Made by a program: the position numbers and the translations under genes
The notes under the pieces: model-generated
Told to the model about the DNA's origin: nothing
Seen by the model: only the letters and a program-made list of their open reading frames with translations
The model's database searches: none
Assembly (NCBI GenBank): GCA_046350615.1
Contig: JAXMAA010000001.1
Span: 8,480-72,479 of the forward strand
Direction: 5' to 3'
DNA from: Candidatus Saccharimonadales bacterium
Lineage (GTDB): Bacteria > Patescibacteriota > Saccharimonadia > Saccharimonadales > UBA7683
DNA: 64,000 bases
Part shown: one piece after another, positions 2,007 through 53,612 of the stretch
Layout: the number at the start of each line of letters is the position of its first letter
Numbering within the stretch: the first letter of the stretch is position 1

Positions 2007-2115
2007 GTCATCTCGACCGTAGTGGAGAGATCTGATTTCGGTGTATATATATGCCAGTAGATCTCTCCTCCTTCGCTAAAGCCATGGCGGACAGGCCGAC
2101 TACACTCGAGATGAC
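2007..2115. repeat. Nested palindromic GTCAT-module unit (MITE-like)
   Basis: Termini GTCATCTCGAC (2007-2017) and CTCGAGATGAC (2105-2115) are inverted. Inner perfect 10-bp inverted repeat GGAGAGATCT/AGATCTCTCC. Contains the word TCGCTAAAGCCATGGCGGACAGG, which recurs at 35920. Confidence 0.7.
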
Positions 2116-2205
2116 GACAATGGCCAGCCCTCACCCTAGCCATTTCTTCTAGTCATAACCATCTTGTGCTACACTTATGGTGTATAAAAAGAGGGAAGTA
2201 ACTGC

Positions 2206-2778
2206 ATGCCTACAATTCTATTAGTTGAAGATGATGTTAACATTCGCGAGATCTATAGCGCTCGTCTCCTGGCAGAGGGCTATACCATTGCCGTATCTGG
2301 TGACGGAGAAGAAGCACTTGCTGCAGCTGTGCGCGAAAAGCCTGATCTAATAATCTCGGACATTATGATGCCTAAAATTAGCGGCTTCGATATGCTCGAT
2401 ATTTTGCGCTCCACCCCCGAAACCAAAGATGTGAAAGTAATTATGATGACTGCCCTGGGGCAAGAGGAAGACCGCCAGCGCGGCGAATCTCTCGGTGCGG
2501 ACCGCTACTTTGTAAAAAGCCAGGTTACACTAGACGAAGTTGTCCAAGCCGTTCAAGAGCTTTTGGGGCAAGCTCCTGCCGCCCCAGCACAGCCAGTGAC
2601 TAATGATGATAGCGCAGCTCCAAATCCTTCCGCCTCTGATGACCTTGCAGACGAAGTTGCTGATTTTGCAGCGTCAAGTCCGCTTATGAACGGCAGCGCT
2701 CCAACACCAAGCCAGCCACAACAAGTAGCGCCAAACGACCCTAATCGTACGCCAGATATCGACGAAATCGAGACATAG
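2206..2778 (+). CDS. Response regulator, receiver domain only, with Pro/Ala/Gln-rich tail
   Basis: ILLVEDD start, DLIISDIMMPKISG phospho-acceptor region, MMTALG, KS motif. No DNA-binding output domain is visible. Confidence 0.9.
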   Translation: MPTILLVEDDVNIREIYSARLLAEGYTIAVSGDGEEALAAAVREKPDLIISDIMMPKISGFDMLDILRSTPETKDVKVIMMTALGQEEDRQRGESLGADRYFVKSQVTLDEVVQAVQELLGQAPAAPAQPVTNDDSAAPNPSASDDLADEVADFAASSPLMNGSAPTPSQPQQVAPNDPNRTPDIDEIET

Positions 2779-2782
2779 CGTT

Positions 2783-3469
2783 ATGTCAGGGCCAGTTCGC
2801 CTCAATAAATACCTGGCACTGCAATCGGGAATAAGCCGTCGTGAAGCAGACCTTAAGATTGAGCAGGGGAGAGTGTCTATAAATGGTCAGCGTGCGCGGC
2901 TCGGCGCAGTCATCCAGCCAGAACGCGATACCATCACCCTTGACAACAGCGCTATTACCACGGCTGTCAAGCGTGCTACCTACATCTTATTGAATAAACC
3001 CCTTGGTTACGTTTGCTCAAGGAAGCAGCAAGGCAATTCTCCAACCATTTACGCGCTGCTGCCGCGCGAATATCAGCGCCTCAAAGTTGCCGGGAGGCTT
3101 GATAAAGACAGTTGCGGCATAGTGCTTCTTACCGATGACGGCGACACAATATTTAAGTTAACGCATCCTAAATTTGGCAAAGAAAAACGCTACGAGGTGG
3201 GTCTCAATAAACCACTTACACCCGCTGATCTTAAAAAACTTACTGGTGGCATAGAGCTTGAAGATGGCATTAGCGCAATCACCGTTTCAACACTTTCAAA
3301 AAAATCAACTCGGCCAAACATGTACTTAGTTGTTATGCACGAAGGTCGCAACCGCCAGATCCGGCGCACTTTTAAGGCGCTCGGCTACACCGTAACTCAT
3401 CTGGAACGCATCAAGTTTGGACCCTACACCCTCAAAGAGCTAGGCTCCAAACAATTTTTGCAGATTTAA
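2783..3469 (+). CDS. Pseudouridine synthase, RsuA/RluB family (S4 domain plus catalytic domain)
   Basis: N-terminal S4-like RLNKYLA..GISRREADLKIEQGRVSING. Catalytic motif GRLDKDSCGIVLLTDDG. C-terminal HEGRNRQIRR. Confidence 0.9.
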   Translation: MSGPVRLNKYLALQSGISRREADLKIEQGRVSINGQRARLGAVIQPERDTITLDNSAITTAVKRATYILLNKPLGYVCSRKQQGNSPTIYALLPREYQRLKVAGRLDKDSCGIVLLTDDGDTIFKLTHPKFGKEKRYEVGLNKPLTPADLKKLTGGIELEDGISAITVSTLSKKSTRPNMYLVVMHEGRNRQIRRTFKALGYTVTHLERIKFGPYTLKELGSKQFLQI

Positions 3470-3518
3470 GCATTTTTATGTTATAATAAAGGTATAGTTT
3501 AAGAAATCCATAGGTATT

Positions 3519-4877
3519 ATGAGTAAAAAACTTCCTGTTGTTGCAATTGTTGGCCGTGCAAACGTTGGTAAATCCAGCTTATTTAATCGTGTATTGCAGC
3601 GCCAAGAGGCAGTCGTAGCGCGCGAGGCCGGGACCACTCGCGACGCAGTGTATCGCACTGTTGAGCACGGCGCACACCATTTTTGGTTGGTTGATACCGC
3701 TGGCTTAAAAGATCCTGAGGATGAATTTGAAGCCACTATTCAAGAACAGATCGAGGAAGCCGCCGCAGCTGCTGATGTAATTATTGTCGTTGTTGAGGCG
3801 CACACTGCAATTACCGAAGAAGATCGCCGCGTGGCCAAAAAAGCTTTGAAGAGTAAAAAACCCGTGCTACTCATCACCAATAAAGTTGACCAGGTAGCCA
3901 AAACTGAGAGCGAAACCCCCTGGGAGCGGCTGGGCATTAAAGAAATCATCAGCACCAGTGCCACGCAAAACCAAGGGATCTCAAGCGTTTTAGACGCCAT
4001 TACAGATCTGATTCCGCCACGCGAGGCACTTCCCGAAGATAATGTTTTGAGAATTGCCTTGCTCGGACGCCCAAATGTCGGCAAAAGCTACCTTTTCAAT
4101 ACACTCGCCAAAAAGCAACAAGCTGTAGTGGCTAACGTTGCTGGCACCACGCGAGATGTCAATAAAGTTCGAGTCCGTTACGAGGGTCGTGATATTGAGC
4201 TCCTTGATACTGCTGGCATCAGAAAAAGTGGCAAGATAGAAAAAGGCATTGAAAAATTCAGTGTTTTAAGAAGTCTGCAAGCCATTGAACAAGCGGATGT
4301 CTGCCTGCTTTTAATGGATGTGAACGAACATTCCACTGCACTCGATCAAAAAATTGCGGGCTTAATTAAAGAGGCGGGGAAGGGATTGGTGCTTGTTGTC
4401 AGCAAGTGGGATAGCCTCGAGAAAACAGCCTATACGCGGGATTCAATTGCCCCAGTCATTACACACAACTTTCAGTTTGTGCCATGGGCGCCACTTATTT
4501 TTACCAGCGCGGAAACTGGCCAAAATGTTACTAAACTGTTTGATCTCGCCATGGATATCTATGCTCGCCGGCGCGCTAAGCTTAAGACCACCGAGCTCAA
4601 CCGCATACTAGCGACCAGCCTGCAGGCGCATCCGCCAGCTGGTCTCAAAAGCCGTCACCCAAAGCCACGCTACCTGGTGCAAGATGATGTCGCTCCGCCA
4701 ACCTTTCGCCTCTACGGTGCCCATCTTGAATACCTCCACTGGAGCTGGAAGCGCTACTTAGAAAAAAACCTCCGATCACAAATCGACTACAACGGCACCC
4801 CAATCCGTTTCTACATGATGAACAACGCCCGAAAATCCGGCAAAACCAAGAAGTTCCTGCCAAAAGTTGAGGAGTAA
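3519..4877 (+). CDS. der: Ribosome-associated GTPase Der/EngA
   Basis: Two tandem GTPase domains (GRANVGKSS..DTAG; GRPNVGKSY..DTAG..SKWD) followed by a KH-like C-terminus. Confidence 0.95.
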   Translation: MSKKLPVVAIVGRANVGKSSLFNRVLQRQEAVVAREAGTTRDAVYRTVEHGAHHFWLVDTAGLKDPEDEFEATIQEQIEEAAAAADVIIVVVEAHTAITEEDRRVAKKALKSKKPVLLITNKVDQVAKTESETPWERLGIKEIISTSATQNQGISSVLDAITDLIPPREALPEDNVLRIALLGRPNVGKSYLFNTLAKKQQAVVANVAGTTRDVNKVRVRYEGRDIELLDTAGIRKSGKIEKGIEKFSVLRSLQAIEQADVCLLLMDVNEHSTALDQKIAGLIKEAGKGLVLVVSKWDSLEKTAYTRDSIAPVITHNFQFVPWAPLIFTSAETGQNVTKLFDLAMDIYARRRAKLKTTELNRILATSLQAHPPAGLKSRHPKPRYLVQDDVAPPTFRLYGAHLEYLHWSWKRYLEKNLRSQIDYNGTPIRFYMMNNARKSGKTKKFLPKVEE

Positions 4878-5539
4878 TGCCGGCAACGACACTTCGACTT
4901 CCAGAACCACACATACTAAGACCAGCGGAAATTGGCCTTTCTATTAGTCAACAAGAAATCACAAGACTTGGAGCATGGATAGCAAGAAATTCCGTACACC
5001 AGCGAGCGCCGCATATACATAGCACAAGTAGAGATAGCCGGGACCATTCTTGGCTCAGAAAAACAAAGCCCTTATTGGTTCCCAGCGAGTTCACGCCACC
5101 CGAAGACGTAGCCGGCTTAGTGCGAGACCTGTACGACGCGCTTCATGAGCCAATGCAGCAATTTATTCGAGCACCACTTGAAAAAATAACCACCCGATAC
5201 GCCGCATCTGGCCACACACATCTACCTGGAGATGATGCAGCAGAAGGCCATCTAGATTACTATCCCAGCGCAAATTTCTACACCGGCAGAACTAACCGCG
5301 GAGGAAAGCTACTCGTCGCTCAAACAGCCAGCCCAAGAAGCGTCGAACAAATTCGAGAGGAAGCATACGATGTCACACCACAACCCGGAACGTTTCTTTT
5401 ATTCTTCGGAACCATCTTCCCTCACTGTGTTGATGCCATTCCAGCCGCCGCAACCGGCGCACGTACTTGTATAAATCTGACCTACTCTGACGGAAACCCA
5501 CAAGACCCTTCACACCCACGCTTCACTTCCGCCAGATAA
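4877..5539 (+). CDS. Hypothetical protein, possible 2OG-Fe(II) oxygenase fold
   Basis: The start overlaps the der stop (TAATG). The pattern HTHLPGDD ... GGKLLV ... PQPGTFLLFFGTIFPHCV ... RTCINLTY resembles HxD...H...R dioxygenase spacing; this is a weak call. Confidence 0.45.
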   Translation: MPATTLRLPEPHILRPAEIGLSISQQEITRLGAWIARNSVHQRAPHIHSTSRDSRDHSWLRKTKPLLVPSEFTPPEDVAGLVRDLYDALHEPMQQFIRAPLEKITTRYAASGHTHLPGDDAAEGHLDYYPSANFYTGRTNRGGKLLVAQTASPRSVEQIREEAYDVTPQPGTFLLFFGTIFPHCVDAIPAAATGARTCINLTYSDGNPQDPSHPRFTSAR

Positions 5540-5577
5540 AGACAACGCCTGAAAATAGAGGAATAGGCCCCCGTCCC

Positions 5578-5602
5578 GTCATTCCCAACTTGATTGGGAA
5601 TC
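5578..5602. repeat. GTCAT hairpin module (left end of GIY-YIG cassette)
   Basis: GTCATTCCCAACTTGATTGGGAATC. 8-bp stem ATTCCCAA/TTGGGAAT with loop CTTGA. Ends 7 nt beyond the GIY-YIG stop codon. Confidence 0.85.
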
Positions 5603-5609
5603 TCGTCCG

Positions 5610-5909
5610 TTAGCCAAGTAGGCTGTCATAGAGATCAGTCCAATCTGAATTCTGGCTCTCAATCAATTCAATCTTCCATTGCCGATTCCACCGTTTCAGC
5701 TGCTTTTCTCGAGTCATCGCATCTTCTGAGGTAGGGTGTTCTTCAAAATAGACAAGCTTATCTATTTGATACTGTTTTGTAAAACCATCTGTAAGTTTCT
5801 CTTTATGTTCATACACCCGGCGAATCAAATCATTCGTAATTCCAATATACAGGGCGCCCCTCTTGGGCCGGCTTGCCAGTATGTATACGTAGAAAGTTCG
5901 CAATTTCAT
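5610..5909 (-). CDS. GIY-YIG nuclease family protein (small stand-alone URI-domain type)
   Basis: FYVYILAS..GALYIGITNDLIRRVYEHK ... REKQLKRWNRQWKIELIE. I place the start at the internal Met (ATG 5907-5909). The ORF-track N-terminal extension only translates the flanking hairpin. Confidence 0.85.
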   Translation of the reverse strand: MKLRTFYVYILASRPKRGALYIGITNDLIRRVYEHKEKLTDGFTKQYQIDKLVYFEEHPTSEDAMTREKQLKRWNRQWKIELIESQNSDWTDLYDSLLG

Positions 5910-5924
5910 GTACTTATTGTACGA

Positions 5925-5949
5925 GATTCCCAACCAAGTTGGGAATGAC
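5925..5949. repeat. GTCAT hairpin module (right end of GIY-YIG cassette, inverted)
   Basis: GATTCCCAACCAAGTTGGGAATGAC. Same 8-bp stem as 5578-5602 with loop CCAAG, in the opposite orientation. Lies 15 nt upstream of the GIY-YIG ATG. Confidence 0.85.
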
Positions 5950-5975
5950 GCCCGGCGAAGGGTATACTTAGACAC

Positions 5976-6584: not shown

Positions 6585-6605
6585 ATTGTCCTCAAAAATT
6601 CAGAC

Positions 6606-6923: not shown

Positions 6924-6995
6924 TTATCTTGAAATGTCAAATATTATTCGCCCTGAGAAAATCGAAGGGTATGGCAAAAACACCGTTTATTATCC

Positions 6996-7023
6996 AGATC
7001 TTTCGACAAGCTCAAGATGACGG
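6996..7023. repeat. Single arm of GTCAT-module family
   Basis: AGATCTTTCGACAAGCTCAAGATGACGG is near-identical to 46991-47018 and similar to 53173-53197. Confidence 0.7.
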
Positions 7024-7050
7024 TTAAACGGGCCGCACAAAAACTATGCT

Positions 7051-7263: not shown

Positions 7264-7292
7264 ATGTTGCTAGAATAGCAGACCAAAACAAT

Positions 7293-7678: not shown

Positions 7679-8536
7679 ATGAAAATCAATAAAGTTACGA
7701 AACAACGTAAGCAGTATCCGGCCTATTTGCTGGAAATCTCATCTGTTCCAAAACAGTTATTTTATCTTGGCGAGCCGCCTGAAGCCTATCTGCCTGCAGT
7801 AACCATTGTTGGTAGTCGCAAGCTCTCGCCGTACGGCCGAGAGGTGACGTACCAGTTGGCATACGACCTAGCAAAACAAGGAGTCTCCGTTATTAGTGGC
7901 CTTGCCTTAGGAGCTGACGGAGTGGCGCACCAAGCCGCAATTGATGCTGGCGGCAGAACAATTGCCGTTCTTGCCAATGGGCTCGATGAGATCTACCCGG
8001 CATCGCACCGAAATTTAGCCATTGAGATCTTGAAAAAGGGCGGCACCATCATGAGTGAATACCCAACCGGCACGCCATCACTCAAGCATCACTTCATCGC
8101 TCGTAATCGTATTGTTTCCGGGCTTTCAGATATGGTAATTATCACTGAGGCAGCCGAGGCCAGCGGCTCGCTTGTAACGGCCAATTTTGCGCTTGAACAA
8201 AACAAACTCGTTGGCGCAGTACCGGGCAATATTACCAATCCGCTCAGTATCGGCACTAATACCTTGATAAAAAGTGGTGCTCAGCTTATTACTTCTGCCC
8301 AAGATGTGCTTAATGCACTCGGCATTCAGGCTGAAGAAAAAGTGCGCCAAGAGGTATTTGGAGATACCGCCGAAGAACAAGCAATCATCGACCTTATGAA
8401 GCAAGGTATAACAGAGATGGACCAGCTCCAACAGCAAAGCAATCTCGACCCAGCCATATTCAGCCAAACCCTCACTATGCTCGAAATCTCCGGCAAAATC
8501 CGCCCCTTGGGCGCAGCCCATTGGACACTTAATTAA
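7679..8536 (+). CDS. dprA: DNA processing protein DprA (Smf)
   Basis: GSRKLSPYG...SGLALGADGVAHQAA...IAVLANGLDEIYP...SGSLVTA core with a C-terminal winged-helix-like tail. Confidence 0.9.
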   Translation: MKINKVTKQRKQYPAYLLEISSVPKQLFYLGEPPEAYLPAVTIVGSRKLSPYGREVTYQLAYDLAKQGVSVISGLALGADGVAHQAAIDAGGRTIAVLANGLDEIYPASHRNLAIEILKKGGTIMSEYPTGTPSLKHHFIARNRIVSGLSDMVIITEAAEASGSLVTANFALEQNKLVGAVPGNITNPLSIGTNTLIKSGAQLITSAQDVLNALGIQAEEKVRQEVFGDTAEEQAIIDLMKQGITEMDQLQQQSNLDPAIFSQTLTMLEISGKIRPLGAAHWTLN

Positions 8537-10325: not shown

Positions 10326-10327
10326 TC

Positions 10328-15703: not shown

Positions 15704-18088
15704 ATGAGCAAAAATAATCTTGTTATTGTAGAGAGCCCGGCTAAGGCGAAAACTATCGAGAAGTATCTTGGTAGTGACTTTAAAGTGATGTCTTCGGTTG
15801 GGCACATCCGTTCAATTGCCAAAAAAACTAAAGATGGCAAAGAGGCAATTGATGTAAAAAACGGTTTTGAAACTGTATACGAGATTGATCCGGATAAAAA
15901 GAAGGTCATCACCGAGCTAAAAAAAGCCGTCAAAGAAACGCAGGCTGTTTGGCTAGCAACTGATGAAGACCGTGAGGGTGAGGCAATTGCCTGGCATTTG
16001 TGTGAGGTCCTGAAACTTGATCCGAAGACCACCAAGCGGATTGTGTTTCATGAAATCACCAAAGGAGCGATTGAAGAGGCGATTAAAAATCCGCGGTACG
16101 TAGATATGAACCTCGTACATGCCCAGCAAGCACGGCAGATTTTAGATAGGATCGTTGGCTTTGAGCTCTCACCAGTCGTCTGGCAGAAGGTGCCAGGTGG
16201 TAAATCTGCTGGCCGAGTGCAATCACCGGCTGTTCGATTGCTTGTGGAGCGTGAGCGTGAAATTGAAAGTTTTGAAGGTAGCTTTCAGTTTAAAGTTACT
16301 GCTGAGTTTATGCATAATGGCGACCTTGTTAAGGCCGAGCTACCACAGCGTTTTGATACCGAAAAAGAGGCTCAAGAGTTCTTAGAAAGCCTCAAAAACG
16401 CTTCATTTACAGTAGGTAGCGTTGAAACTACTCCTGGCACTCGTAACCCTTCAGCGCCGTTCACTACCAGCACCCTGCAGCAAGATGCCAACAGTAGGCT
16501 CGGTTTTAGCGCCAAAGCCACCATGGCAGCCGCCCAGAAGCTTTACCAAGAGGGTAAAATCACCTACATGCGTACTGATTCGGTCAATCTAAGCAGCCAA
16601 GCTTTGGCCCAAATGACTGAGTTTATCAAAAAAGAGTACGGCGAGAAGTATCATCAATTCAGAACCTTCAAAACCAAGAATTCGAGCGCACAGGAGGCTC
16701 ACGAAGCCATACGCCCAACAGATGTGAAAACCACCTCTGCCAGTAGTGATAGCTACAACCAGAAGCTCTACGAACTAATCCGAAATCGCACCCTAGCAAG
16801 CCAGATGGCGCCTGCTAAACTGGAAAAGACTACAGTGAGCATTATAATTTCAACCAGCAAATACATCTTTGAAGCTAAAGGTGAGGTGATTTTATTTGAT
16901 GGCTTCCTGAGAGTATATGGCGGCAGCAAAAAAGACCCTGAGATTTTACCAGCACTCGTTGCGGACGATCGGCTGGAGCTAGAAATTGCATCTGCTCGCC
17001 AAATATTTGCCCGTCCACCAGCACGCTACACCGAAGGCTCGCTGGTTAAAAAACTTGAAGATCTTGGCATCGGCCGCCCATCCACCTACGCTACGATCAT
17101 CAATACAGTACAAGTACGAGGCTATGCAGAAAAAGGTGAAAGTGAAGGCGAACCACGCGATGCAATCGTTTTATCATACGTGCCATCCGGTCATTCTGAA
17201 CTTGTTTCAGGATCTACAAACGCCCAAGAGCAGATTCCGAAACAAGTTCGGAATGGCATCGTGCGTGAAGTTGTGCAAGAAAAAACCGGCTCAGATAGGG
17301 GCAAACTAGTACCGACTGCTGCTGGAAAAGTTCTCAACAACTTTCTAGTAGATCACTTTGACCAAGTGGTAGACTATGGTTTTACGGCTGCTGTAGAGGA
17401 AGAATTTGATCAAATTGCTGCTAATAAGTTGGCTCGTAATAAGATGTTAAACGAGTTTTATGATCCGTTTCACAAATTGATTGAAAACTCCGGCAGCATT
17501 GACCGCTCAACTGTCGCCCAAGCACGCGAGATAGGGGTACACCCTAAAACCGGAAAACCGATTTTAGCTCGATTTGGACGCTTTGGCCCCATGCTGCAGC
17601 ACGGTGCGACTGAAGATAAAGAGGCAAAACCGCAATTTGCGCCCCTTCCAAAAGGCGCAAAGCTTGAAACCGTCACGCTCGAGGAGGCCCTAAAAGCCTT
17701 CGAGCTGCCGCGAACCGTTGGCCAAACTGAAGATGGCAAAGAAATCAAAGCGAATATTGGCCGTTTTGGGCCTTATATTCAAGTGGAGAAGCTGTTTGTA
17801 AGTATTAAACCACTCGACCCGCACACAATCACACTCGAGGAGGCAAAAGAGCTCTACGCCGCTAAATTAAAGGCTGAGGCAGAGAAAAATATTGCCGATT
17901 TTGGCGATGGTATCAAAGTGTTAAACGGACGGTTCGGCCCCTACATAACCGACGGTACCAAAAATGCCAAAATTCCAAAAGACACCGACCCCAAGAAGGT
18001 TACCCACGAAGAAGCCAAAAAGCTCCTCGCCGAAGCCCCAGCAAAAGGCAAGCGCACCTTCAAGCGCCGTACTTCTAAAAAGAAATGA
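15704..18088 (+). CDS. topA: DNA topoisomerase I
   Basis: TOPRIM LVIVESPAKAKTIEKYLG, DEDREGE, active-site YMRTDS. The C-terminus has three GRFGPY-type repeats and a basic tail instead of Cys4 zinc fingers. Ends with TGA. Confidence 0.95.
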   Translation: MSKNNLVIVESPAKAKTIEKYLGSDFKVMSSVGHIRSIAKKTKDGKEAIDVKNGFETVYEIDPDKKKVITELKKAVKETQAVWLATDEDREGEAIAWHLCEVLKLDPKTTKRIVFHEITKGAIEEAIKNPRYVDMNLVHAQQARQILDRIVGFELSPVVWQKVPGGKSAGRVQSPAVRLLVEREREIESFEGSFQFKVTAEFMHNGDLVKAELPQRFDTEKEAQEFLESLKNASFTVGSVETTPGTRNPSAPFTTSTLQQDANSRLGFSAKATMAAAQKLYQEGKITYMRTDSVNLSSQALAQMTEFIKKEYGEKYHQFRTFKTKNSSAQEAHEAIRPTDVKTTSASSDSYNQKLYELIRNRTLASQMAPAKLEKTTVSIIISTSKYIFEAKGEVILFDGFLRVYGGSKKDPEILPALVADDRLELEIASARQIFARPPARYTEGSLVKKLEDLGIGRPSTYATIINTVQVRGYAEKGESEGEPRDAIVLSYVPSGHSELVSGSTNAQEQIPKQVRNGIVREVVQEKTGSDRGKLVPTAAGKVLNNFLVDHFDQVVDYGFTAAVEEEFDQIAANKLARNKMLNEFYDPFHKLIENSGSIDRSTVAQAREIGVHPKTGKPILARFGRFGPMLQHGATEDKEAKPQFAPLPKGAKLETVTLEEALKAFELPRTVGQTEDGKEIKANIGRFGPYIQVEKLFVSIKPLDPHTITLEEAKELYAAKLKAEAEKNIADFGDGIKVLNGRFGPYITDGTKNAKIPKDTDPKKVTHEEAKKLLAEAPAKGKRTFKRRTSKKK

Positions 18089-18163
18089 TCTGCCAAAGGC
18101 AGATACAACCGCCCCGCCTACTCAAGAACCGAGAGAGCCAAGCCTTGTTGTACCCTGCGAGCC

Positions 18164-18560
18164 GAGGATGTCTGAGGCCTGATGTAATCAGGCCGAGTTC
18201 CGCAGGCTCCAGAGTATGACAAGGTTTGGCGACCATCGTGCTTTTTGAATCTAGGCGGTGCTTTTGTTTTACTTTTGGCAGCAAAAGTAATGAAAGAAGA
18301 GTATAAGATAGTATCTCTAGGTATTTCTCCTTACCACTTTTGGCAGCAAAAGTGGAGCAAAACTGCCAACCAGAACTCACCAAGACGATGTTACGAGCAG
18401 TCAGTACCTCTCGGGCTGCTGCGGAACTCGCTCTCCTTGTTCGCTCAGACATCCTCACAGCGCCGGGAGCTACTAACTGCTCTCCACTCGGTTGGATCGA
18501 TGGTTGGGTGGGCTGCAGCGGCACAGGAGAGTCTTGCTGTTTTGGGTATTCTCATTTCAG
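18164..18560. ncRNA. Unknown conserved structured intergenic element, copy 1
   Basis: Shares perfect blocks with 48905-49185: a 23-mer at 18366-18388, an 11-mer at 18419-18429, an 8-mer at 18449-18456 and a 27-mer at 18482-18508. The hairpin ACTTTTG-GCAG-CAAAAGT occurs twice (18271, 18336). The strand is unresolved. Confidence 0.4.
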
Positions 18561-18818
18561 ATTTGCTTGCCCACCGTAGCTTTAGCGAAGGCGGATTTAG
18601 TATTTATTTGTATTTTGGTGCTTGGAATTTGAGATTACATCCGTAAATATGCTTATTATTTACTGCTTTTGACAAGCATAAAAGGTTACATCTAGTGTGT
18701 TCATGTATTTGGAATACCTGCTATTTAGTGCTATAATTTGTGCATATACGAGAAAACGTATTGACTTTCAAAAATATATGTATTAAAATATGGTAAATCC
18801 ACAATAAATTAAGTTAAT

Positions 18819-20769: not shown

Positions 20770-21181
20770 ACAAATGCAGCATATGCCGTCATTCTTGACT
20801 TGATTAGGGGCGTAGTTAGCACGATATACCGTAAACTCGAAATACTAAAAATACGATCAAAACACAGTAGTGTAGACAAAATACGAACATTATCGTTGTC
20901 TGTGATTGTAAGCTCTAAGCACGGAAGCATGTTCGTTAGCACAATAATTCAAACACTCGCACTAAATCCGCTGTGGCATGTCGGTCAATTGTAAATGTAC
21001 AAAATACGAACATTCAATAACGGTATCGTGGGGCGTGGAACCAAAATACGGCATACATTAAATCTCAAATATACAAGGTACGGTAGGTGATGAGAACGCA
21101 AATCAAGAACATGTAAGCAAAACGAGATTATTAAGCATAAGAAAGATGAGTGCGCATATGCGACTTTGAGATGGTATCGTA

Positions 21182-32797: not shown

Positions 32798-32889
32798 TAC
32801 TGATTAGTATACCGTATGCAAGCATAAAAGCATTACCGCAACAAGCAATTACCGCCCGAATCACAAAATTAAATACACACTACAAGCCC

Positions 32890-32958
32890 GTCATCCTGAA
32901 CTTGTCTCAGAATCCATGGCCTTTATTAGACTAGATCCTGAAACAAGTTCAGGATGAC
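32890..32958. repeat. GTCAT-module unit with perfect 16-bp terminal inverted repeat
   Basis: GTCATCCTGAACTTGT ... ACAAGTTCAGGATGAC, 69 bp in total. The right half also forms its own hairpin ATCCTGAA/TTCAGGAT. Confidence 0.8.
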
Positions 32959-32989
32959 GGTGAGGGGTTTGTGATTGGGGTATTAATTA

Positions 32990-35540: not shown

Positions 35541-35602
35541 GCCTACAATGTACGTACAACATTATAAAAACACAAGCACAAGCGTACTTAATAACTGAGT
35601 AC

Positions 35603-35705
35603 CAAAACTCACCGGTGTCATCCCGGACTTGATCCGGGATCTAGTATTTGAACTGGATTCCCGTCTTCACGGGAATGACGGACGTGAGGTTTTTAGATTC
35701 AGGTT
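35603..35705. repeat. 103-bp double-hairpin GTCAT module, copy A
   Basis: Identical at all 103 positions to 41302-41404. Contains the hairpins ATCCCGGA-CTTG-ATCCGGGAT and ATTCCCGT-CTTC-ACGGGAAT. Confidence 0.95.
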
Positions 35706-35855
35706 ACTTCATGATCTGCATTTCACGGCTATGGAATATTCTGAATCTTAAAACCAAACAAACCTACGGATCACCCTCTTTCTGTGCTTATTTCATAACG
35801 AAGACGACTTTTCGAGGCTCGGATACATTAACCTATACCTTGAAACCCCGCCCTT

Positions 35856-35884
35856 GTCATCCTGAGCAACGTCGAAGGATCTAG
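35856..35884. repeat. GTCAT hairpin module variant
   Basis: GTCATCCTGAGCAACGTCGAAGGATCTAG, followed at 35920-35942 by TCGCTAAAGCTATGGCGGACAGG (22 of 23 identical to 2073-2095). Confidence 0.7.
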
Positions 35885-36042
35885 TGGGTATACACCAGAT
35901 CGGCTAGACCCTTTCTTACTCGCTAAAGCTATGGCGGACAGGTCAACAGGCCCAACATGACACACTAACAGATTGGGAGTTCCGAGATTCAGTTATAGAT
36001 TAATTTTGATTATTCAATACAATATGCTATAATTAGTATATT

Positions 36043-39928: not shown

Positions 39929-40578
39929 ACTTGTTCCTTCATGCCTCGCTTATCGTACCAGTAATTATACACGATCGCCGCAATCAAGCTCACACCGTAC
40001 ACATACCAAACAGCTTTATACCAGCTTACAGAAAGCTCGCGCCCCAAACTCAGACCATGATAAAAAATCATCGCCATCGCAACAACCTGCGCCCAATCGA
40101 CATACTTCCACCACGATTTCTTCTGAAATCTCCGCTTCAACTCAAACAACAAAAAGATGATCAGACCGATACTACCAAGCCCAATCGCAAACTTCATTGC
40201 ACCATAAACCTCCAGATAGCTCTGTGGCGGCAAGCCAAAACCATCTTTGTAGAGTTGAAAAATAAACAAGCCAGGGTGTAAAAGAATAAATGCCAAAACA
40301 AGATAGCTGCTTACCATAGAATACAGTTTATTCTCTTTCGCAGACACTCCAAGCACTCGCCTCAACGAGCCGAGCACATAATGTGTCCACATCAAACTAA
40401 ATGCCGCTAAACCAAGGAGCGGAAAGATATCGTAAGTAGCCAAAGAGCCGCCATTAAGTCGCTCCCCGGCCCATACAACAGTAGCTAGCACGAGAACAAA
40501 TAACCCCAGTCCCCACGAACAAACTCGAAGAATAGTTTTATTGTTCATATGTTTATTGTAACAGATCAGACGACTCAA
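39925..40578 (-). CDS. Polytopic membrane protein, ferric-reductase/cytochrome-b-like
   Basis: Six predicted TM segments with conserved-looking His residues (WTHYVLG, LHPGLF, FYHGLSLG). 4-nt overlaps with both neighbouring genes. Confidence 0.45.
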   Translation of the reverse strand: MSRLICYNKHMNNKTILRVCSWGLGLFVLVLATVVWAGERLNGGSLATYDIFPLLGLAAFSLMWTHYVLGSLRRVLGVSAKENKLYSMVSSYLVLAFILLHPGLFIFQLYKDGFGLPPQSYLEVYGAMKFAIGLGSIGLIIFLLFELKRRFQKKSWWKYVDWAQVVAMAMIFYHGLSLGRELSVSWYKAVWYVYGVSLIAAIVYNYWYDKRGMKEQV

Positions 40579-40976
40579 ACTAACCGCGCATGTTTGCTTT
40601 GACGTGAGAGTTTTTTATCAAAAGTCAGAAGCTGCACACCCTGTAGTTCTGCGTACGTTGCCAAGCAAGCATCGGCAAAAGAGATTGCCGGATGCTCAAC
40701 GTAAAACGGCAAGGCTTTTGCTAAGAGCTCTCGATTACAATTTACCTTGGGATGCTTCAAGATAATCTCCGCAATCTCTGAAACCTCTTTGCGCGAATAG
40801 CCGAGACGTGAGGAATGTAAAATCCACACCACCTCCGCCCACGCAAGATCTGCAATATGTACTTCTTTCACGCTCGGATCCTTAAGAACAGCAATCACCT
40901 GCTCTGCTTGATCTGGAATATCTTGCAGTATCCAACGCAACAATAAGTTTGTGTCAAATGCAACCGAACTGCTCAT
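40575..40976 (-). CDS. vapC: PIN-domain toxin VapC
   Basis: An N-terminal acidic residue (AFDTNLLLR), later D/E positions, and a TFD C-terminal motif; paired with an AbrB-type antitoxin. Confidence 0.8.
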   Translation of the reverse strand: MSSSVAFDTNLLLRWILQDIPDQAEQVIAVLKDPSVKEVHIADLAWAEVVWILHSSRLGYSRKEVSEIAEIILKHPKVNCNRELLAKALPFYVEHPAISFADACLATYAELQGVQLLTFDKKLSRQSKHARLV

Positions 40977-40979: not shown

Positions 40980-41282
40980 CTACGCTCGATCTTTCCATGC
41001 TTGATCACGAAGCTGTTCAATCTCTTCAACCAAAAGTGGCGCAATACCTCGCTCTTTGCGATGTTTCTGCACCTTTTTTTGCAGTCGCTCAAACTCTACC
41101 CAATAGTCATCTTTCTCCAAAATTATCTGGCCCTTAACTTCTTTCACGCGCAGCCTATCAGATGTAGAAATACCAAGTTTTCTGCGAATAGTCACCGGCA
41201 CAGTTACCTGACCCTTGCTCGTAATTGTTGTGCTAAATGTTTTCATAGGTATTACTTTATCAAAAGTAATACCTAATGTCAA
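40980..41282 (-). CDS. vapB: AbrB/SpoVT-type antitoxin VapB
   Basis: TITSKGQVTVPVTIRRKLGI motif; 3 nt upstream of vapC. Confidence 0.8.
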   Translation of the reverse strand: MTLGITFDKVIPMKTFSTTITSKGQVTVPVTIRRKLGISTSDRLRVKEVKGQIILEKDDYWVEFERLQKKVQKHRKERGIAPLLVEEIEQLRDQAWKDRA

Positions 41283-41301
41283 GGTAATACCACTTGACTC
41301 T

Positions 41302-41404
41302 CAAAACTCACCGGTGTCATCCCGGACTTGATCCGGGATCTAGTATTTGAACTGGATTCCCGTCTTCACGGGAATGACGGACGTGAGGTTTTTAGATTCA
41401 GGTT
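41302..41404. repeat. 103-bp double-hairpin GTCAT module, copy B
   Basis: Identical at all 103 positions to 35603-35705, in the same orientation. Confidence 0.95.
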
Positions 41405-41437
41405 TTTTGTGGCCCAAGCCTCAAGATCTCTCCCAAC

Positions 41438-41555
41438 GTCATCCCCAACTCGATTGGGGATCCAGTTATGTACTAGACTCTCAGTATAGCTTCGTTACAC
41501 TCAGTACATAATTCGACCCTTCTTTTAGCTACCAAATTAGCAAGCTGAGAATGAC
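41438..41555. repeat. GTCAT-module unit (hairpin plus distal inverted terminus)
   Basis: GTCATCCCCAACTCGATTGGGGATCC at the left end and GCTGAGAATGAC at the right end. Confidence 0.5.
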
Positions 41556-41650
41556 AGATCTGAGGTTTCGAGGTTTGGGCCAAACGTCCATTCCCGAAAA
41601 CTTGCACTAAAGTATGGCTAGTCGGCCAACCTCCAGTGTAATATCGAGGG

Positions 41651-46883: not shown

Positions 46884-47064
46884 GGGTTAGATATTAGAGC
46901 TTAGTTCTTAGTTCTTAGATCTTAGAAATAGACATAAAGCTGTCATCTCGACTTTATGGAGAGATCCGCTCTCTGATTAGCTTGGATGGTAGATCTTTCG
47001 ACAGGCTCAAGATGACGGCATATACAATCTTGTGGTCTCACTCTGAGAACTAAGATCTAACCCC
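46884..47064. repeat. Nested palindromic unit: outer TTAG-rich inverted repeat enclosing a GTCAT module
   Basis: Outer arms GGGTTAGAT..CTTAGTTCTTAG (46884-) and CTGAGAACTAAGATCTAACCCC (47043-47064). The inner part runs GTCATCTCGAC (46942) ... CTCAAGATGAC (47016). Confidence 0.7.
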
Positions 47065-48221: not shown

Positions 48222-48704
48222 TCAATACTTATAGAGGTACAGGGCGCCCTGAACGGCTTTTGGCTTCTTGTTAGGAATTTGAAACGTATAACTGACCAGT
48301 TGACTGCCCTTTTTTAGTTCTTTTGAAAGTTTGGCGTCGAGCTTTGGCATGTATTTATCCAGCAAAAAGACGAATACGCCTTTGGTCTCTGGCGACAGAG
48401 TAATCTTCCAGAAGTTTTTACAGCGCACTGTAACTAAATCTCGAACCTTCCGAGTGCGCCACACGGCAACTGCCCATACAAACGGATTTAGTTCGTAACC
48501 GTAGCAGCGAAGACCGCGCCGCGCCGCAGCCACCAAAAGTGCGCCGTCACCGCAGCCAAGATCAACAAACACCTCACCCTCTTTAAGGCCCAGCATATCG
48601 AGCGCTTGCTCCGCCTGCTCGCGCCGCGTTGGCAAATACGGCGCGCCGTAAAGCAGCACGAAAGCAAATGGCAGAACAATCAAGCATAGCGCCAGCCAAA
48701 TCAT
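48222..48704 (-). CDS. Class I SAM-dependent methyltransferase with N-terminal TM
   Basis: Motif I VFVDLGCGDGALLV. The start is taken at MIWLAL (48704). Confidence 0.7.
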   Translation of the reverse strand: MIWLALCLIVLPFAFVLLYGAPYLPTRREQAEQALDMLGLKEGEVFVDLGCGDGALLVAAARRGLRCYGYELNPFVWAVAVWRTRKVRDLVTVRCKNFWKITLSPETKGVFVFLLDKYMPKLDAKLSKELKKGSQLVSYTFQIPNKKPKAVQGALYLYKY

Positions 48705-48904
48705 ACAACCACCTTTTTTAAATCCAGATAACCCTCGCAAAGCGAGTCAGCCAGCCTCCACCCCCTCACAAAAACCCGAATACCGGAAGCTTTGTTTTTC
48801 CGAGTCAAGGAGCAACTTGCCCGAACCCATAACTTTACACTTTGTGAGGGATGCTTGTCATTGTTGCGACGCGGAAAAAACAAAGCTGGAGGTATATCGA
48901 GCTT

Positions 48905-49185
48905 TTGGTGTCGGGGGTGCAGTTTTGTTTTGCTTTTGCTGCCAAAAGCGAAGAGAGAAACACGGTTTTTTATACCCCTACTTTTTGATAGCAAAAAGAT
49001 AGCAAAAACTACCAACCAGAACTCACCAAGACGAAGCTTCGTACCACACTTTGTTCTTGGGTCACTGCGGAACTCAGCCTGATTAACATCAGGCTTCAAA
49101 CATCCTCGCGACGCCAGGAACAAAGCATGGTGCTCCACTCGGTTGGATCGATGGTTGGGGAGCTGCATCGGCAGATGGTAGTCGA
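48905..49185. ncRNA. Unknown conserved structured intergenic element, copy 2
   Basis: Perfect blocks shared with copy 1 at 49012-49034, 49065-49075, 49100-49107 and 49133-49159. The hairpins GCTTTTG-CTGC-CAAAAGC (48932) and CTTTTTG-ATAG-CAAAAAG (48981) covary with those of copy 1. Confidence 0.4.
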
Positions 49186-49227
49186 TTCTAAATTCTATAG
49201 AGCTTGTATCGAGCACCGTCTGTTTGA

Positions 49228-49431
49228 TCATGGGGTGAATTTTTGTTTGATGATTTCTACTTGGTTTTTGGCATCTTTCAGCTGAGCTTCTAGCTCCTGC
49301 GAAAGCTTCAAGGCCTGCTCGTATTTTTCAAGCGATTCTTCCACCGTAATTTCTTCAGACTCAAACCAAGCCAGCAAGGCCTCAAGCCGTTCCATCTTCT
49401 GGGCAATTGTGGTTTTTTTACTTTCTGACAT
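49228..49431 (-). CDS. xseB: Exodeoxyribonuclease VII small subunit
   Basis: Small helical protein (LEALLAWFESEEITVEESLEKYEQALKL); overlaps xseA. Confidence 0.85.
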   Translation of the reverse strand: MSESKKTTIAQKMERLEALLAWFESEEITVEESLEKYEQALKLSQELEAQLKDAKNQVEIIKQKFTP

Positions 49432-50545: not shown

Positions 50546-51581
50546 CCGGCGTTTTGCCCAAACTTGGCAATGCTTTGTGATAAAAATAGTATCCTACTGG
50601 CAAGCTCAGCAGCAGGTTCAGTACTCGGTACATCACCGTTACTGAAATCGCCAGACCAGCCGGCACCCCGGCTGAAACCAATACAGCCGCCATCAAACCC
50701 TCGTACACTCCAATACCACCCGGTAGCACCGCCACAAGACCAGCAAAATTAGCCAGCGCATAGGCGATAATAATTGCTCCGGGGTTCACAAACTGACCAT
50801 ATGCAATATACACAATGTAAATTGTTGCGAGCTCTGTTATATTCGCCAGTATAGAGTAGAAAAAAGGTGTTTTTAGCTGCGGTAGCTTAGTGCGAAGTAG
50901 CACGTAATTTTCATGCATTTCGTTACCCAACTTTTCAACTCGGGCCAAACCAATTGTTTCCGGATGACTCGGCCGAACAAGGTGCAGTAAGCGATTTACT
51001 AATTTCGTCAGTGTTTTGGTAAATGTTTTAATGCGAGCTTTTTTGCTGACAATGTAGCCGCCCACCACAATAGTAAATACCGTCAAGAAGCTCAGGCTAC
51101 AAGTAATCAGAATCGTCATATTGCTCGCACTGCCACCAAGAGCCAACAAGAACAGCCCAATAAACAGCAGAATCACGTAGCTCGCAAAAGTTAACATAAA
51201 TCTCATAGTCTGAGTCAGTGTTGCCTGCGCCGTACTCACACCGACCGATTTCAAACGAGCCGCAAAATAACTAAAGCCCGAAACCCCGCCACTCGGAAAA
51301 ACGTGATTGACAAAATTTAATTCCAGAGAGACTTTGTACATAAATTTAGTCGGCAGTTTCTTACCCAAAATCTTCAAAAATTCCTGATACAAATGTGCAT
51401 ATGCAGCATAATTCTGCGCTTGCAGCGGAATCATCAACAGAAGTGCAACTGTGTTAATTTTACCCAAATCACGCAGGGCATGCGCAATATCGTGACGCAC
51501 TAAAAAAACGGCCAGGCCGAGTAGCCCAAAAGTTATAATGTTTAAAAACAGCTTCCAGCGTTGCTTAAATAATTGTTTCAT
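50526..51581 (-). CDS. Flippase-like/lysyl-PG-synthase TM-region family membrane protein (UPF0104)
   Basis: Eight or more TM segments with the VLPGGIGVYEG motif near the C-terminus. Confidence 0.65.
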   Translation of the reverse strand: MKQLFKQRWKLFLNIITFGLLGLAVFLVRHDIAHALRDLGKINTVALLLMIPLQAQNYAAYAHLYQEFLKILGKKLPTKFMYKVSLELNFVNHVFPSGGVSGFSYFAARLKSVGVSTAQATLTQTMRFMLTFASYVILLFIGLFLLALGGSASNMTILITCSLSFLTVFTIVVGGYIVSKKARIKTFTKTLTKLVNRLLHLVRPSHPETIGLARVEKLGNEMHENYVLLRTKLPQLKTPFFYSILANITELATIYIVYIAYGQFVNPGAIIIAYALANFAGLVAVLPGGIGVYEGLMAAVLVSAGVPAGLAISVTVMYRVLNLLLSLPVGYYFYHKALPSLGKTPDELKHG

Positions 51582-52078
51582 CTCGCCCGCCTCTTAGCCA
51601 TCACATTTAGTATCAGTAGGATGCATAAAAAACCAACAAATGCACCGACATTGTTTGCCACTAGATCAATGTTGGTATCAAGCTTGGTAGAAATATACAC
51701 ATGCCGAGTAGTCAGCTCGCCAATTAGTTCAGCAATTTCATTCACATTTCCAAGAATATTAACAACCGAAAACAACAAAAAAAACCGCGGCCACAATATC
51801 AACCGCGGCCACAAACGGCTAATAACATACGCCGTCATGATCGCCACCACCACTCCGCCACCAATAGCATGATGCAAAAAGTTTGCCGGCAAACGATCAA
51901 GAAAATAATATGGAATTGTCGAGGCTGCAAACTGCACACCCGCCGCCAAAAGCGGCACCAACAGATCATTTCGCCGCCAACTATAGCCACTTTTAAGAAT
52001 ACATGTTTGATACCAGTAGATCACCACAAGAGGCAAGCCGGCAGTAGCAATCAACAAAATAATCCCAAGCATCAGCAC
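51578..52078 (-). CDS. VanZ-like membrane protein
   Basis: Four TM segments; the C-terminal DLVANNVGAFVGF resembles the VanZ family motif. Confidence 0.5.
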   Translation of the reverse strand: MLMLGIILLIATAGLPLVVIYWYQTCILKSGYSWRRNDLLVPLLAAGVQFAASTIPYYFLDRLPANFLHHAIGGGVVVAIMTAYVISRLWPRLILWPRFFLLFSVVNILGNVNEIAELIGELTTRHVYISTKLDTNIDLVANNVGAFVGFLCILLILNVMAKRRAR

Positions 52079-52373
52079 CTAGTATACCAGCCGCCCAAAA
52101 AATCGCATCGTACAAAAATACCATTTTCCGTCCAATCGGACGTTTTTTAGTACAAATACGTTGCCTTGAAATTACACGATCTTATTCGATACAAATCATA
52201 AACATAACATTAATCGTATTATAACTACCCATGTATGCACTGCCCAACCGTTTCTATCACCTGGCCGTTTGAATAAAAATTATACTAAATTTTGTCCAAT
52301 TGGACGATTTTTAGTATATTTTCTATTCTAGGATGGCTTGATACTTGCTGTTTACTGGGTAATACTTATCGGT

Positions 52374-53612
52374 ATGCAGATTGTGATTTTAGGGAGGCAA
52401 CCGAAACTTTCTTTGGCGGAGCTGGAGAGTTTGTTTGGTGCTGAAAAAATTATTGAGATATCGGACTATGCGGCACTTGTGACGAGCGAGGATCCTCTGC
52501 CTCAAGCACGACTTGGTGGCACCATGAAGTGCGCTCGCCTGCTTTCTCGGCTAGAAAATACGGATCTTTCCGGCGCTTTTTCATATCTACAAACAAACAC
52601 CCCTGAACACCTTCAGTATCTCCCAGATGGAAAACTCCAGTTTGGCGTAAGTATCTACGGCTTTAAGGCGCAGAAAAATTGGCTACTCAAACAGATGTTA
52701 GAGCTAAAAAAAATCATTAAAAAGCAGGGCCGCAGCGTTCGGATTATTGAAAATAAATCTGAAGCGTTAGAGAGCGCGCAAGTTCTCTACAATAAACTTA
52801 CAGGCCCGCTTGGTTGGGAGTTACTACTTATAAAAGATCGCGACGATGTCATCTTAGCACAAACCTACGCCGTGCAAGATATCGATGCCTACGCCGCCCG
52901 AGATTTTGAGCGACCAAAACGCGATGCATTTGTGGGTATGCTGCCACCGAAACTTGCGCAGATTATGATCAACCTTGCCGCATCAAGGATAGTAGATACA
53001 AACAAACAGATAACAGATGGGGCTGCATCCGAAGCCTGCATCCTCGACCCATTTTGTGGCACCGGTGTAGTGCTACAAGAAGCCATATTGATGGGCTTTG
53101 CCACCTATGGCTCTGACATCTCGGAGAAAATGGTTGAATATAGTACTGAAAACATAAAATGGCTCCAAGATCAGATCCTTCGACAAGCTCAGGATGGCCC
53201 ACTGCAATGGCGTATTGAAACAGGCGATGCTATAAACCACCACTGGGATTTCTCTAAAATCCATTCTTTAAACCCTCAGATCTCTGTGGTGTGCGAAACA
53301 TACCTTGGTACACCGCTTGCTTCACTTCCTGAAACGCATCGGCTAGACACAATCATGGATGAAGCCAATACAATTGCTGAAGGTTTTTTGCAAAATATCT
53401 CCAGTCAGCTCAAAAAAGGGACTCGGTTCTGCGTAGCATTCCCCGCCTGGTATCTGGGAAATAGCGAGTTTAAACACCTCAAAGTGCTTGACCATCTGGC
53501 AGATCTGGGGTACAATCGATTAGATTTAGTCCACGCCGATAAAAAAGATTTAATCTATCACAGAGAAAATCAGGTTGTGGCAAGAGAATTAACCATTTTG
53601 GAGAAGAAATAG
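52374..53612 (+). CDS. N6/N2-type RNA/DNA methyltransferase (UPF0020-like) carrying an embedded repeat arm
   Basis: Motif I LDPFCGTGVVLQEA. The start is taken at MQIVILGR. Residues ILRQAQDG are encoded by a GTCAT-family repeat arm (53173-53197). Confidence 0.7.
   Translation: MQIVILGRQPKLSLAELESLFGAEKIIEISDYAALVTSEDPLPQARLGGTMKCARLLSRLENTDLSGAFSYLQTNTPEHLQYLPDGKLQFGVSIYGFKAQKNWLLKQMLELKKIIKKQGRSVRIIENKSEALESAQVLYNKLTGPLGWELLLIKDRDDVILAQTYAVQDIDAYAARDFERPKRDAFVGMLPPKLAQIMINLAASRIVDTNKQITDGAASEACILDPFCGTGVVLQEAILMGFATYGSDISEKMVEYSTENIKWLQDQILRQAQDGPLQWRIETGDAINHHWDFSKIHSLNPQISVVCETYLGTPLASLPETHRLDTIMDEANTIAEGFLQNISSQLKKGTRFCVAFPAWYLGNSEFKHLKVLDHLADLGYNRLDLVHADKKDLIYHRENQVVARELTILEKK

Follow-up and report, generated by a model that had tools for sequence, protein, structure and literature searches.

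The stretch of DNA analysed here (the window) comprises 64,000 nucleotides of a Candidatus Saccharimonadales bacterium (GenBank assembly GCA_046350615.1, contig JAXMAA010000001.1, positions 8,480 to 72,479) and is dense bacterial coding DNA with a G+C content of 45%, 76 open reading frames (ORFs) and one tRNA. Between its genes, and in places within them, lies a family of oriented hairpins of about 29 nt with a 5' GTC tag, candidates for the Ssn-related motifs (SRM) that accompany genes of the Ssn nucleases, and two of these hairpins enclose a gene for a small GIY-YIG nuclease, here called ssn-like. A covariance model (R1) built from 13 units of the window and searched with the filters off gave 17 matches in the window at 27.5-42.8 bits (E <= 1.2e-4), all of which appear in the list below; the next best match, at 14 bits, is the palindrome of a true unit read in reverse. 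Units of the G.A class carry a mismatch within the stem, as described after the list.

2005..2117, unstranded: composite element of 113 nt, with a G.A-class unit at 2005-2034 (+; R1 31 bits), a conserved word at 2058-2100 and a long-loop unit at 2059-2117 (-) ending ...CTCGAGATGAC; it lies after a histidine kinase gene, and the whole element folds at -24.4 kcal/mol (z = -3.9)
5576..5604, plus strand: SRM unit, CCGTCATTCCCAACTTGATTGGGAATCTC, 7 nt past the ssn stop codon, tag outward; R1 40.0 bits; DNA hairpin of -7.3 kcal/mol (z = -3.3)
5610..5909, minus strand: ssn-like gene for a 99-aa single-domain GIY-YIG nuclease (Pfam PF01541, E = 6e-16, the only domain)
5923..5951, minus strand: SRM unit 15 nt upstream of the ssn start codon, tag outward; R1 37.5 bits; DNA hairpin of -8.8 kcal/mol (z = -3.3)
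6995..7023, minus strand: single G.A-class unit, CCGTCATCTTGAGCTTGTCGAAAGATCT, flanked by two minus-strand genes; R1 40.0 bits
17188..17259, unstranded: inverted pair in topA, 17188-17216 (+) and 17231-17259 (-); R1 36.8 and 31.0 bits; fold of -18.4 kcal/mol (z = -5.4)
20788..20812, plus strand: possible decayed relic, GTCATTCTTGACTTGATTAGGGGCG, resembling a unit in sequence only; no R1 match even at E <= 10
32888..32960, unstranded: inverted pair, 32888-32916 (+) and 32932-32960 (-), between two minus-strand genes; R1 35.5 and 42.8 bits; fold of -21.9 kcal/mol (z = -6.4)
35596..35705, unstranded: 110-nt composite, an inverted heterodimer of 35615-35643 (+) and 35654-35681 (-) within the outer palindrome AAAACTCAC...GTGAGGTTTT, in a divergent intergenic region; R1 37.9 and 27.5 bits; fold z = -3.7
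35854..35965, unstranded: composite element with a G.A-class unit at 35854-35883 (+; R1 29.1 bits), the word at 35905-35947 and a decayed right end ...CAACATGAC
41295..41404, unstranded: second copy of the 110-nt composite, with units 41314-41342 (+) and 41353-41380 (-), both matched by R1
41436..41557, unstranded: unit 41436-41464 (+; R1 37.5 bits) and a decayed partner, the right end ...GAGAATGAC giving no R1 match
46884..47064, unstranded: outer palindrome, GGGTTAGAT..TTAGTTCT / AGAACTAAGATCTAACCC, enclosing an inverted G.A-class pair, 46940-46968 (+) and 46990-47018 (-); R1 33.4 and 39.1 bits; the outer arms are paired in the fold (-24.6 kcal/mol, z = -2.6)
53172..53200, minus strand: single G.A-class unit with a damaged tag, CCATCC instead of CGTCATCC; R1 29.7 bits

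Alignment of the units (A1) revealed a common plan, in which a C or T is followed by an invariant GTC, a palindrome opening with A-T and T-A pairs, a loop of 3-5 nt and an invariant C, the fixed columns being G3, T4 and C5 at one end and C28 at the other. The base before the GTCAT tag is C or T at 17 of the 18 tagged sites, the exception being a G at 17190, and at the 19th listed site, 53172, the GT of the tag has been lost. The 3' tail always begins with C and reads, over its whole length, CTA, CTG, CTC, CCA or CCG in the window. The strict pattern of GTCAT, a perfect stem of at least 7 bp and C occurs at 8 sites, against a mean of 0.023 (maximum 1) in 300 dinucleotide shuffles, a result that supersedes a looser hairpin scan with stems of at least 5 bp (9 against 3.3 expected). 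The stems also covary: 86% of the cells are paired, compared to 72% in shuffles and 8-53% in slid registers, and both partners change at 6 of the 8 stem pairs (as high in 0 of 500 shuffles), with the A-T and T-A pairs invariant. Folded as single-stranded DNA (ssDNA), the units reach z values of about -3 to -6, and eight of them have perfect stems of 8-9 bp with loops of 3-5 nt. The original prediction, which was made from the letters of the sequence, had proposed a single family of hairpin modules at eleven or more sets of coordinates, of which eleven were listed; each of these indeed holds a unit or a composite of units, and the covariance model with its 17 matches and covarying stems supports the idea of one family. 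It had missed the topA pair at 17188-17259 and the GIY-YIG gene inside its own listed pair 5578/5949.

Two structural classes can be distinguished. Class 1 comprises 11 units with unbroken 8-bp stems (ATTCCCAA, ATCCCCAA, ATCCCGGA, ATTCCCGT and ATYCTGAA). Class 2, the G.A class, comprises six units (2005, 6995, 35854, 46940, 46990 and 53172), whose stem consists of 5 bp, a tandem G.A/A.G mismatch and one more pair, for example ATCTT-GA-G...C-GA-AAGAT. These six units are the source of the VILS.../ILRQAQD peptides in the translations. The peptides WIPVFTGMT and VILSNVEGS, noticed earlier, are correct translations of the units at 35654 (-) and 35854 (+), and the suspicion that such peptides recur as junk in many genomes agrees with the SFPRKRES-type extensions found on homologues of the nuclease, which are peptides encoded by a unit, and with RHSELVSGS and ISPQGRDD within TopA proteins.

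The distribution of the units is strongly biased towards intergenic DNA, where 9 of the 11 loci lie although it makes up 12.4% of the window (P ~3e-7). The family had been described as intergenic, which applies to these nine; at the other two loci, three units sit in frame within genes, namely topA and a methyltransferase-like ORF. Inverted pairs form 7 of the 11 loci, with the tags pointing outward in all seven, and some pairs are embedded in longer palindromes (35596-35705 and 46884-47064), the latter being the larger inverted repeat that the original prediction had seen. The composites recur as wholes. The 103-nt copies recognized at 35603 and 41302 belong to a longer repeat of 110 nt, whose two copies, 35596-35705 and 41295-41404, are 97% identical, while 2005-2117 and 35854-35965 align end to end as an element of about 110 nt present twice. 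A second word thought to travel with the hairpins is real, with 2 exact copies against 0 expected, and corresponds to the interior of this latter element (word repeat D6, 2058-2100 / 35905-35947, 77% identity over 43 nt); its supposed inverted 13-mer at 18577 is indistinguishable from chance, since 0.21 are expected at <=1 mismatch. For the modules placed at 2007-2115 and 41438-41555, the left units stand and the right ends are nonstandard, the first having a long loop and the second being decayed. The degenerate copy suggested near 20787 gives no R1 match and could at most be a decayed relic, which agrees by eye with the 5578 unit at 19 of 25 positions. The densest cluster of hairpins, 41295-41557, is adjoined by genes for a PIN-domain toxin (40575-40976) and a MazE/AbrB-type antitoxin (40980-41282).

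The ssn-like gene is enclosed by the inverted pair 5576-5604 / 5923-5951, with tags outward on both sides. Its 99-aa product is 100% identical to P0001, annotated as 'GIY-YIG nuclease family protein, Candidatus Saccharimonadales', and has 5389 homologues of 93-100 aa that are unusually conserved across phyla (57-76% identity). In an alignment of 26 homologues (A2), Y9, Y21, R31, H35, E68 and N87 are invariant; the catalytic Tyr, Tyr and Glu are all present, and the spacing between Y21 and E68 (47) equals that between Y17 and E64 in the Neisseria meningitidis enzyme. Homologues flanked by the exact consensus of NTS, the motif of the Neisseria nuclease, are 52-66% identical to the window protein. 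A search of the PDB gave a distant match, 1zg2 (UPF0213, E = 5e-5), and tblastn for further ssn paralogues found none within the window. DprA (TIGR00732, 249 bits) is encoded at 7679-8536, 700 nt from a unit; its presence indicates that the organism handles ssDNA in the manner of competent cells, and Ssn requires its substrate in single-stranded form.

A sample of 80 homologue loci from more than 12 phyla was scanned with the window-derived model and with a simple scan. The sample covered Alpha-, Beta- and Gammaproteobacteria, Planctomycetota, Ignavibacteria, Chlorobi, Acidobacteriota, Omnitrophota, Dehalococcoidia, Latescibacterota, Verrucomicrobiota, Cyanobacteria, Bacteroidota and Patescibacteria. 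The 100 nt upstream of the gene hold 41 units in plus orientation, and 45 units in minus orientation either lie in the 100 nt downstream or overlap the end of the gene; farther away there are about 1-3 units per 100-nt bin. Near the gene, the tag is distal to it on either side. At least one adjoining unit is present at 53 of the 80 loci, and units on both sides at 27 under the strict scan. The commonest unit at these loci is (C/T)GTCATTCCCGCGAAAGCGGGAATCCA, many loci carry the exact NTS consensus, and a CCA tail is the rule.

A metagenome scan with the exact G.A-class pattern found an Ssn-like gene on 3 among the 120 contigs listed, a figure of little weight, the copies of any dispersed repeat lying mostly far from the gene. 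Among the matches listed, two of those three contigs (L111 and L119) have G.A-class hairpins on both sides of the gene with tags outward; since this class flanks Ssn-like genes there, it is probably also of SRM type, belonging to a more distant Ssn clade unseen in the window. On another metagenome contig (L112, 830-1077), eight G.A-class units (TGTCATCCTGAGCGAAGTCGAAGGATCTTT) stand head to tail with a period of 32 nt, unlike the inverted pairs of the window.

Two bodies of published work describe repeats of this kind. The CGTC-tagged superfamily of repetitive extragenic palindromic (REP) sequences was defined by Di Nocera, De Gregorio and Rocco (2013, BMC Genomics 14:522, PMC3733652) by a CGTC or TGTC tag (CCTC being allowed), a stem of 8-9 bp starting with AT, a loop of 4-5 nt and a CCA tail; inverted dimers predominate, and palindrome nesting and in-frame intragenic copies encoding 20-30 aa occur. 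The superfamily was found in five phyla by that survey and includes Neisseria dRS3 and Rickettsia RPE-4 and RPE-6 (PMC3733652). The window units share with it the tag, the 8-bp stem from AT, the 4-5 nt loop, a 3-nt tail led by C, the inverted dimers (some of them heterodimers), the nesting of dimers in longer palindromes, the in-frame intragenic copies and the several stem variants per genome. They differ in that their tails are mostly CTA or CTG rather than CCA, that the G.A class has no uninterrupted stem of 8-9 bp, and that in this candidate-phylum host the repeat stands beside its own GIY-YIG gene, whereas the 2013 survey found no enzyme dedicated to these repeats, which 'apparently lack a dedicated transposase' (PMC3733652).

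Such an enzyme was linked to dRS3 more recently, when this repeat was redefined as the oriented NTS, CGTCATTCCCGCGMAVGCGGGAATCYRG, and generalized to SRM (Chenal et al. 2025, Nat Commun 16:2388, PMC11893778). The ssnA gene encodes a 94-aa single-domain GIY-YIG protein, and its homologues are flanked by SRM in 71% of cases and on both sides in 42%. SsnA enzymes from three Neisseria species and Wolbachia bind the hairpin only as ssDNA and cut a few nucleotides upstream of the tag; by mutagenesis, cutting depends most on the three bases that precede the palindrome and binding on the C that follows it, and a changed stem sequence abolishes activity even if the hairpin is kept (PMC11893778). In N. 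meningitidis, SsnA lowers transformation by NTS-bearing DNA (PMC11893778). The window has the same oriented hairpin with a CGTC-type 5' tag, a palindrome from AT and a C directly after it, the same gene for a single-domain GIY-YIG protein of about 95 aa between inverted repeats, and units that are dispersed and mainly intergenic. Its departures are the stems ATTCCCAA and ATCCTGAA and the G.A-mismatch class, which are outside the published string, and the 3 of 18 units lying in genes, compared to 2% in N. meningitidis. The invariant GTCAT...ATC positions of the window units are the bases found critical by mutagenesis, which supports their membership in a known system. We therefore consider it very likely, from these sequence features, that the modules are Ssn-related motifs, equivalent to CGTC-tagged REPs, and that they constitute oriented hairpin sites with an Ssn nuclease gene in the window. 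The notion that the family is widespread was right, as tagged hairpins beside ssn homologues in many phyla indicate; the view that its function is uncharacterized is outdated, the CGTC REPs having been catalogued in 2013 (PMC3733652) and linked experimentally to Ssn in 2025 (PMC11893778).

Comparison with relatives provides evidence that the units come and go, as the original prediction had proposed to check by insertion polymorphism. The topA pair adds 72 nt, that is 24 codons, in frame to topA (15704-18088). When the best 120 Saccharibacteria TopA proteins were listed and a subset aligned (A3), the 24-aa insert was present in a 96%-identical relative and absent from relatives of 770 aa that are 81-84% identical; ten proteins of 769-772 aa in A3 have no insert, and about 770 aa is the length of most of the 120 proteins listed. 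The insertion is also visible when the topA DNA is aligned with that of a relative (L082). Other relatives carry differing inserts that are likewise encoded by SRM (RHPEPVEGS...ISPQGRDD, RHSRPDRES and WIPDQVGDD), at the position used in the window and at a second one near residue 383, and in the DNA, topA contains two model-positive pairs in a relative with two inserts and none in an insert-free relative. Saccharibacteria topA thus offers two recurrent in-frame positions (L081 11149-11208 and 11539-11598; A3 columns 385-425 and 550-590), at which different relatives have different SRM pairs and up to about 45 aa are added at one position. Outside genes, the spacer between the histidine kinase and response regulator genes measures 251 nt here, including the 113-nt element, and 40 nt in the syntenic contig L081, which lacks the element there. 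Judging from these alignments, this lineage has evidently acquired and lost pairs in intergenic DNA as well as, in frame, inside genes.

The ssn cassette itself occupies the same place, between der and pth, in the window and in two relatives, L083 and L084, with ATTCCCAA-stem units in all three. The cognate stem ATTCCCAA...TTGGGAAT is kept beside orthologues of the nuclease that are 93% (L083) and 76% (L084) identical. The orientation of the cassette in L083 is that of the window. In L084 (627-1004, compared to 5570-5950 in the window), the segment between the units is inverted relative to der and pth, which suggests either flipping between the inverted hairpin arms or re-insertion. Logan assemblies use a word size of 31 nt; as the 28-nt arms are shorter than this, the orientation in L084 is probably real despite the short contig. 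A 675-bp segment of the window, 4877-5551, is absent from L083 and L084, where der directly abuts the ssn cassette; it carries an ORF (4877-5539) of 220 aa without a Pfam family, whose start overlaps the der stop.

The unit at 53172-53200 is in frame in the methyltransferase-like ORF 52338-53612 (TIGR01177-like, E = 1e-15) and encodes ...QILRQAQDG... at residues 279-288. This ORF has a TTG start and 168 residues ahead of the first family match, so its true start may lie further downstream; the unit is inside the gene whichever start is taken.

By analogy with the Neisseria and Wolbachia enzymes, the Saccharimonadales Ssn would be expected to act on its cognate ATTCCCAA stem as follows. A strand would become single, as incoming transforming DNA, as lagging-strand template or in a cruciform extruded by a unit pair, and the single-stranded unit would fold into an 8-bp stem starting with AT/TA and a loop of 3-5 nt, or into a G.A-class stem. 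The small monomeric Ssn (5610-5909) would bind the hairpin plus the C after it, and cleavage would follow on that strand, a few nucleotides to the 5' side of the GTC tag. In its layout, the SRM-ssn-SRM cassette is that of a minimal insertion sequence (IS), and the gene-less pairs with outward tags would be non-autonomous relatives of it, similar to REPINs (inverted REP doublets) or miniature inverted-repeat transposable elements (MITEs). An IS-like architecture of SRM-ssn was raised by Chenal et al. just as a hypothesis (PMC11893778), and any role of Ssn in spreading the repeats, like its action on the other stem classes, is put forward here at that conjectural level. A bolder version, which we find possible but doubtful, makes Ssn the long-missing mobilizer of the CGTC REPs and the SRM-ssn-SRM cassette an autonomous GIY-YIG 'REPtron' still active in Saccharibacteria; the pairs would then insert at preferred ssDNA targets, including the two topA hot spots, and the stem classes would reflect several co-resident or past Ssn specificities.

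Several observations weigh against assigning the units to the SRM-Ssn system or against mobilization by Ssn. The published SRM string, HGTCWYN(0-2)YYVSBRHN(0-5)WNVSBRGN(0-2)RNCYNB, matches 4 of the 17 units (35616, 35653, 41315 and 41352, or two distinct units in four copies), compared to 0.17 in shuffles; the other 13, including both units flanking the ssn-like gene, fall outside this string, which was built by hand from 29 genomes (PMC11893778). The enzymes characterized by Chenal et al. are from Neisseria and Wolbachia, Patescibacteria being unmentioned in PMC11893778. The 64 kb contain at least five stem types and one visible ssn gene; given the published need for the stem sequence, many units may not be substrates of the window Ssn. 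This diversity could reflect additional ssn paralogues outside the window, a relaxed specificity, or copies that are relics. An NCBIfam search with the 99-aa protein returned no model, and no target-site duplications are visible at the pair boundaries in the window.

The features of the units nevertheless have to be weighed against other explanations. If they acted as RNA, as intrinsic terminators or 3' mRNA-stabilizing stem-loops repeated since many genes need one, their position downstream of genes would be accounted for in several cases (2005 after the histidine kinase gene; 6995, 32888-32960 and 46940-47018 between co-directional genes), as would the two identical units caught by a loose terminator scan, and REPs are often downstream of ORFs and plausibly transcribed (Di Nocera et al., PMC3733652). 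This is improbable, however, as the stems are not followed by T-runs, terminator-like sites are not enriched in the window (20 against 16.5 expected), inverted pairs place units on both strands, and termination would have no use for a conserved single-stranded tag and tail or for linkage to a DNA nuclease across 80 genomes. Rather than being simple terminators confined to gene 3' ends, the units at 35615-35883 and 41314-41464 lie in divergent regions between two 5' ends, and three units are in frame within topA and the methyltransferase ORF. Rfam at gathering thresholds detected one tRNA in the window and no RNA family at the units, and SsnA does not bind RNA (PMC11893778).

The remaining alternatives concern other kinds of mobile DNA. 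Ordinary MITEs, as deletion derivatives of DDE-type IS with self-complementary terminal inverted repeats (TIRs), would explain the GTCAT...ATGAC ends of the inverted pairs and the recurrence of composites of 70-120 nt (2005/35854 and 35596/41295) that are polymorphic between relatives. The pairs have no flanking target-site duplications, though, no transposase was seen among the annotated ORFs (part of the 76), and single units are common; compensatory stem changes with a fixed tag and tail fit a structure-recognizing protein and not a TIR-binding transposase. In the window as in the 80 other genomes, the one gene seen between such ends encodes a GIY-YIG nuclease of 95-100 aa, and this origin is very unlikely. 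We regard as more remote still a classical REP/REPIN system mobilized by a REP-associated tyrosine transposase (RAYT), an IS200/IS605-type tyrosine HUH enzyme. The likeness is considerable: in such REPtrons a small enzyme recognizes a tagged ssDNA hairpin and cuts beside it, the gene is framed by repeats, and gene-less inverted doublets with palindrome nesting are scattered through the genome. Excision and insertion have been demonstrated for IS200/IS605, whereas we know of no transposition chemistry for Ssn. Yet the tag here is (C/T)GTC and not GTAG, the flanked gene encodes a GIY-YIG and not a Y1/HUH protein, the two being unrelated in fold and chemistry, and Di Nocera et al. found a RAYT flanked by CGTC repeats in no species (PMC3733652).

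Neisseria dRS3 serves as a site for filamentous (Nf) prophages and IS110-family elements. IS1111 likewise targets the REP in Coxiella QMITE2 (PMC5896051), and the units could accordingly be chiefly attachment or target sites for other elements. As the main function this has very little probability, as no IS110-family or integrase gene stands beside the units among the annotated ORFs (part of the 76) and the ssn linkage is left unexplained; as a side role it would be compatible with the SRM-Ssn assignment. In 2000, Ogata and colleagues reportedly described Rickettsia palindromic elements inserted in protein-coding genes (work cited in PMC3733652). The topA pair resembles these in being inserted in frame into an essential gene, with a short peptide (24 aa) added and the protein intact; RPE-1 is longer (~100-150 nt), and here the same two topA positions bear different SRM pairs in different Saccharibacteria.

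Further features of the window were noted in passing. AGATCT occurs 36 times window-wide against about 18 expected, an excess partly due to unit tails (..GAGAGATCT, ..AAAGATCT), and CTAG 117 times against 244 expected over the whole window. The GC skew is negative nearly throughout, and past about 21 kb the minus strand carries the majority of genes. The segments 18359-18508 and 49005-49159 are 78-89% identical and lie inside ORFs 18075-18524 (-) and 48701-49231 (-); as these repeats are within ORFs without a Pfam family, the two are probably paralogous genes unrelated to the hairpins. A cyanobacterial HIP1/SDR context for the repeats and an origin in organelle DNA were considered and dropped, the window holding one HIP1 site, densely packed bacterial genes and proteins of Saccharimonadales.

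Taken together, what is locally new comprises the stems outside the published motif, the in-frame topA hot spots and the inverted ssn cassette. The units account for a whole category of junk ORFs and unusual peptide extensions, among them inserts in essential proteins such as TopA, and in annotation they should be masked or labelled as SRM/CGTC-REP. As natural variants beyond the published motif, the cognate ATTCCCAA stem and the G.A-mismatch class, which also flanks Ssn-like genes, would help in mapping the specificity of Ssn and with the ssDNA-cutting tools that have been proposed. Cheap comparative evidence on whether and how the repeats move is offered by the inverted cassette and by the insertion polymorphisms. 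Finally, these findings place the Ssn/SRM system in the ultra-small, epibiotic and naturally competent lineage of the Saccharibacteria, in which ssDNA-specific restriction of incoming DNA could be important.

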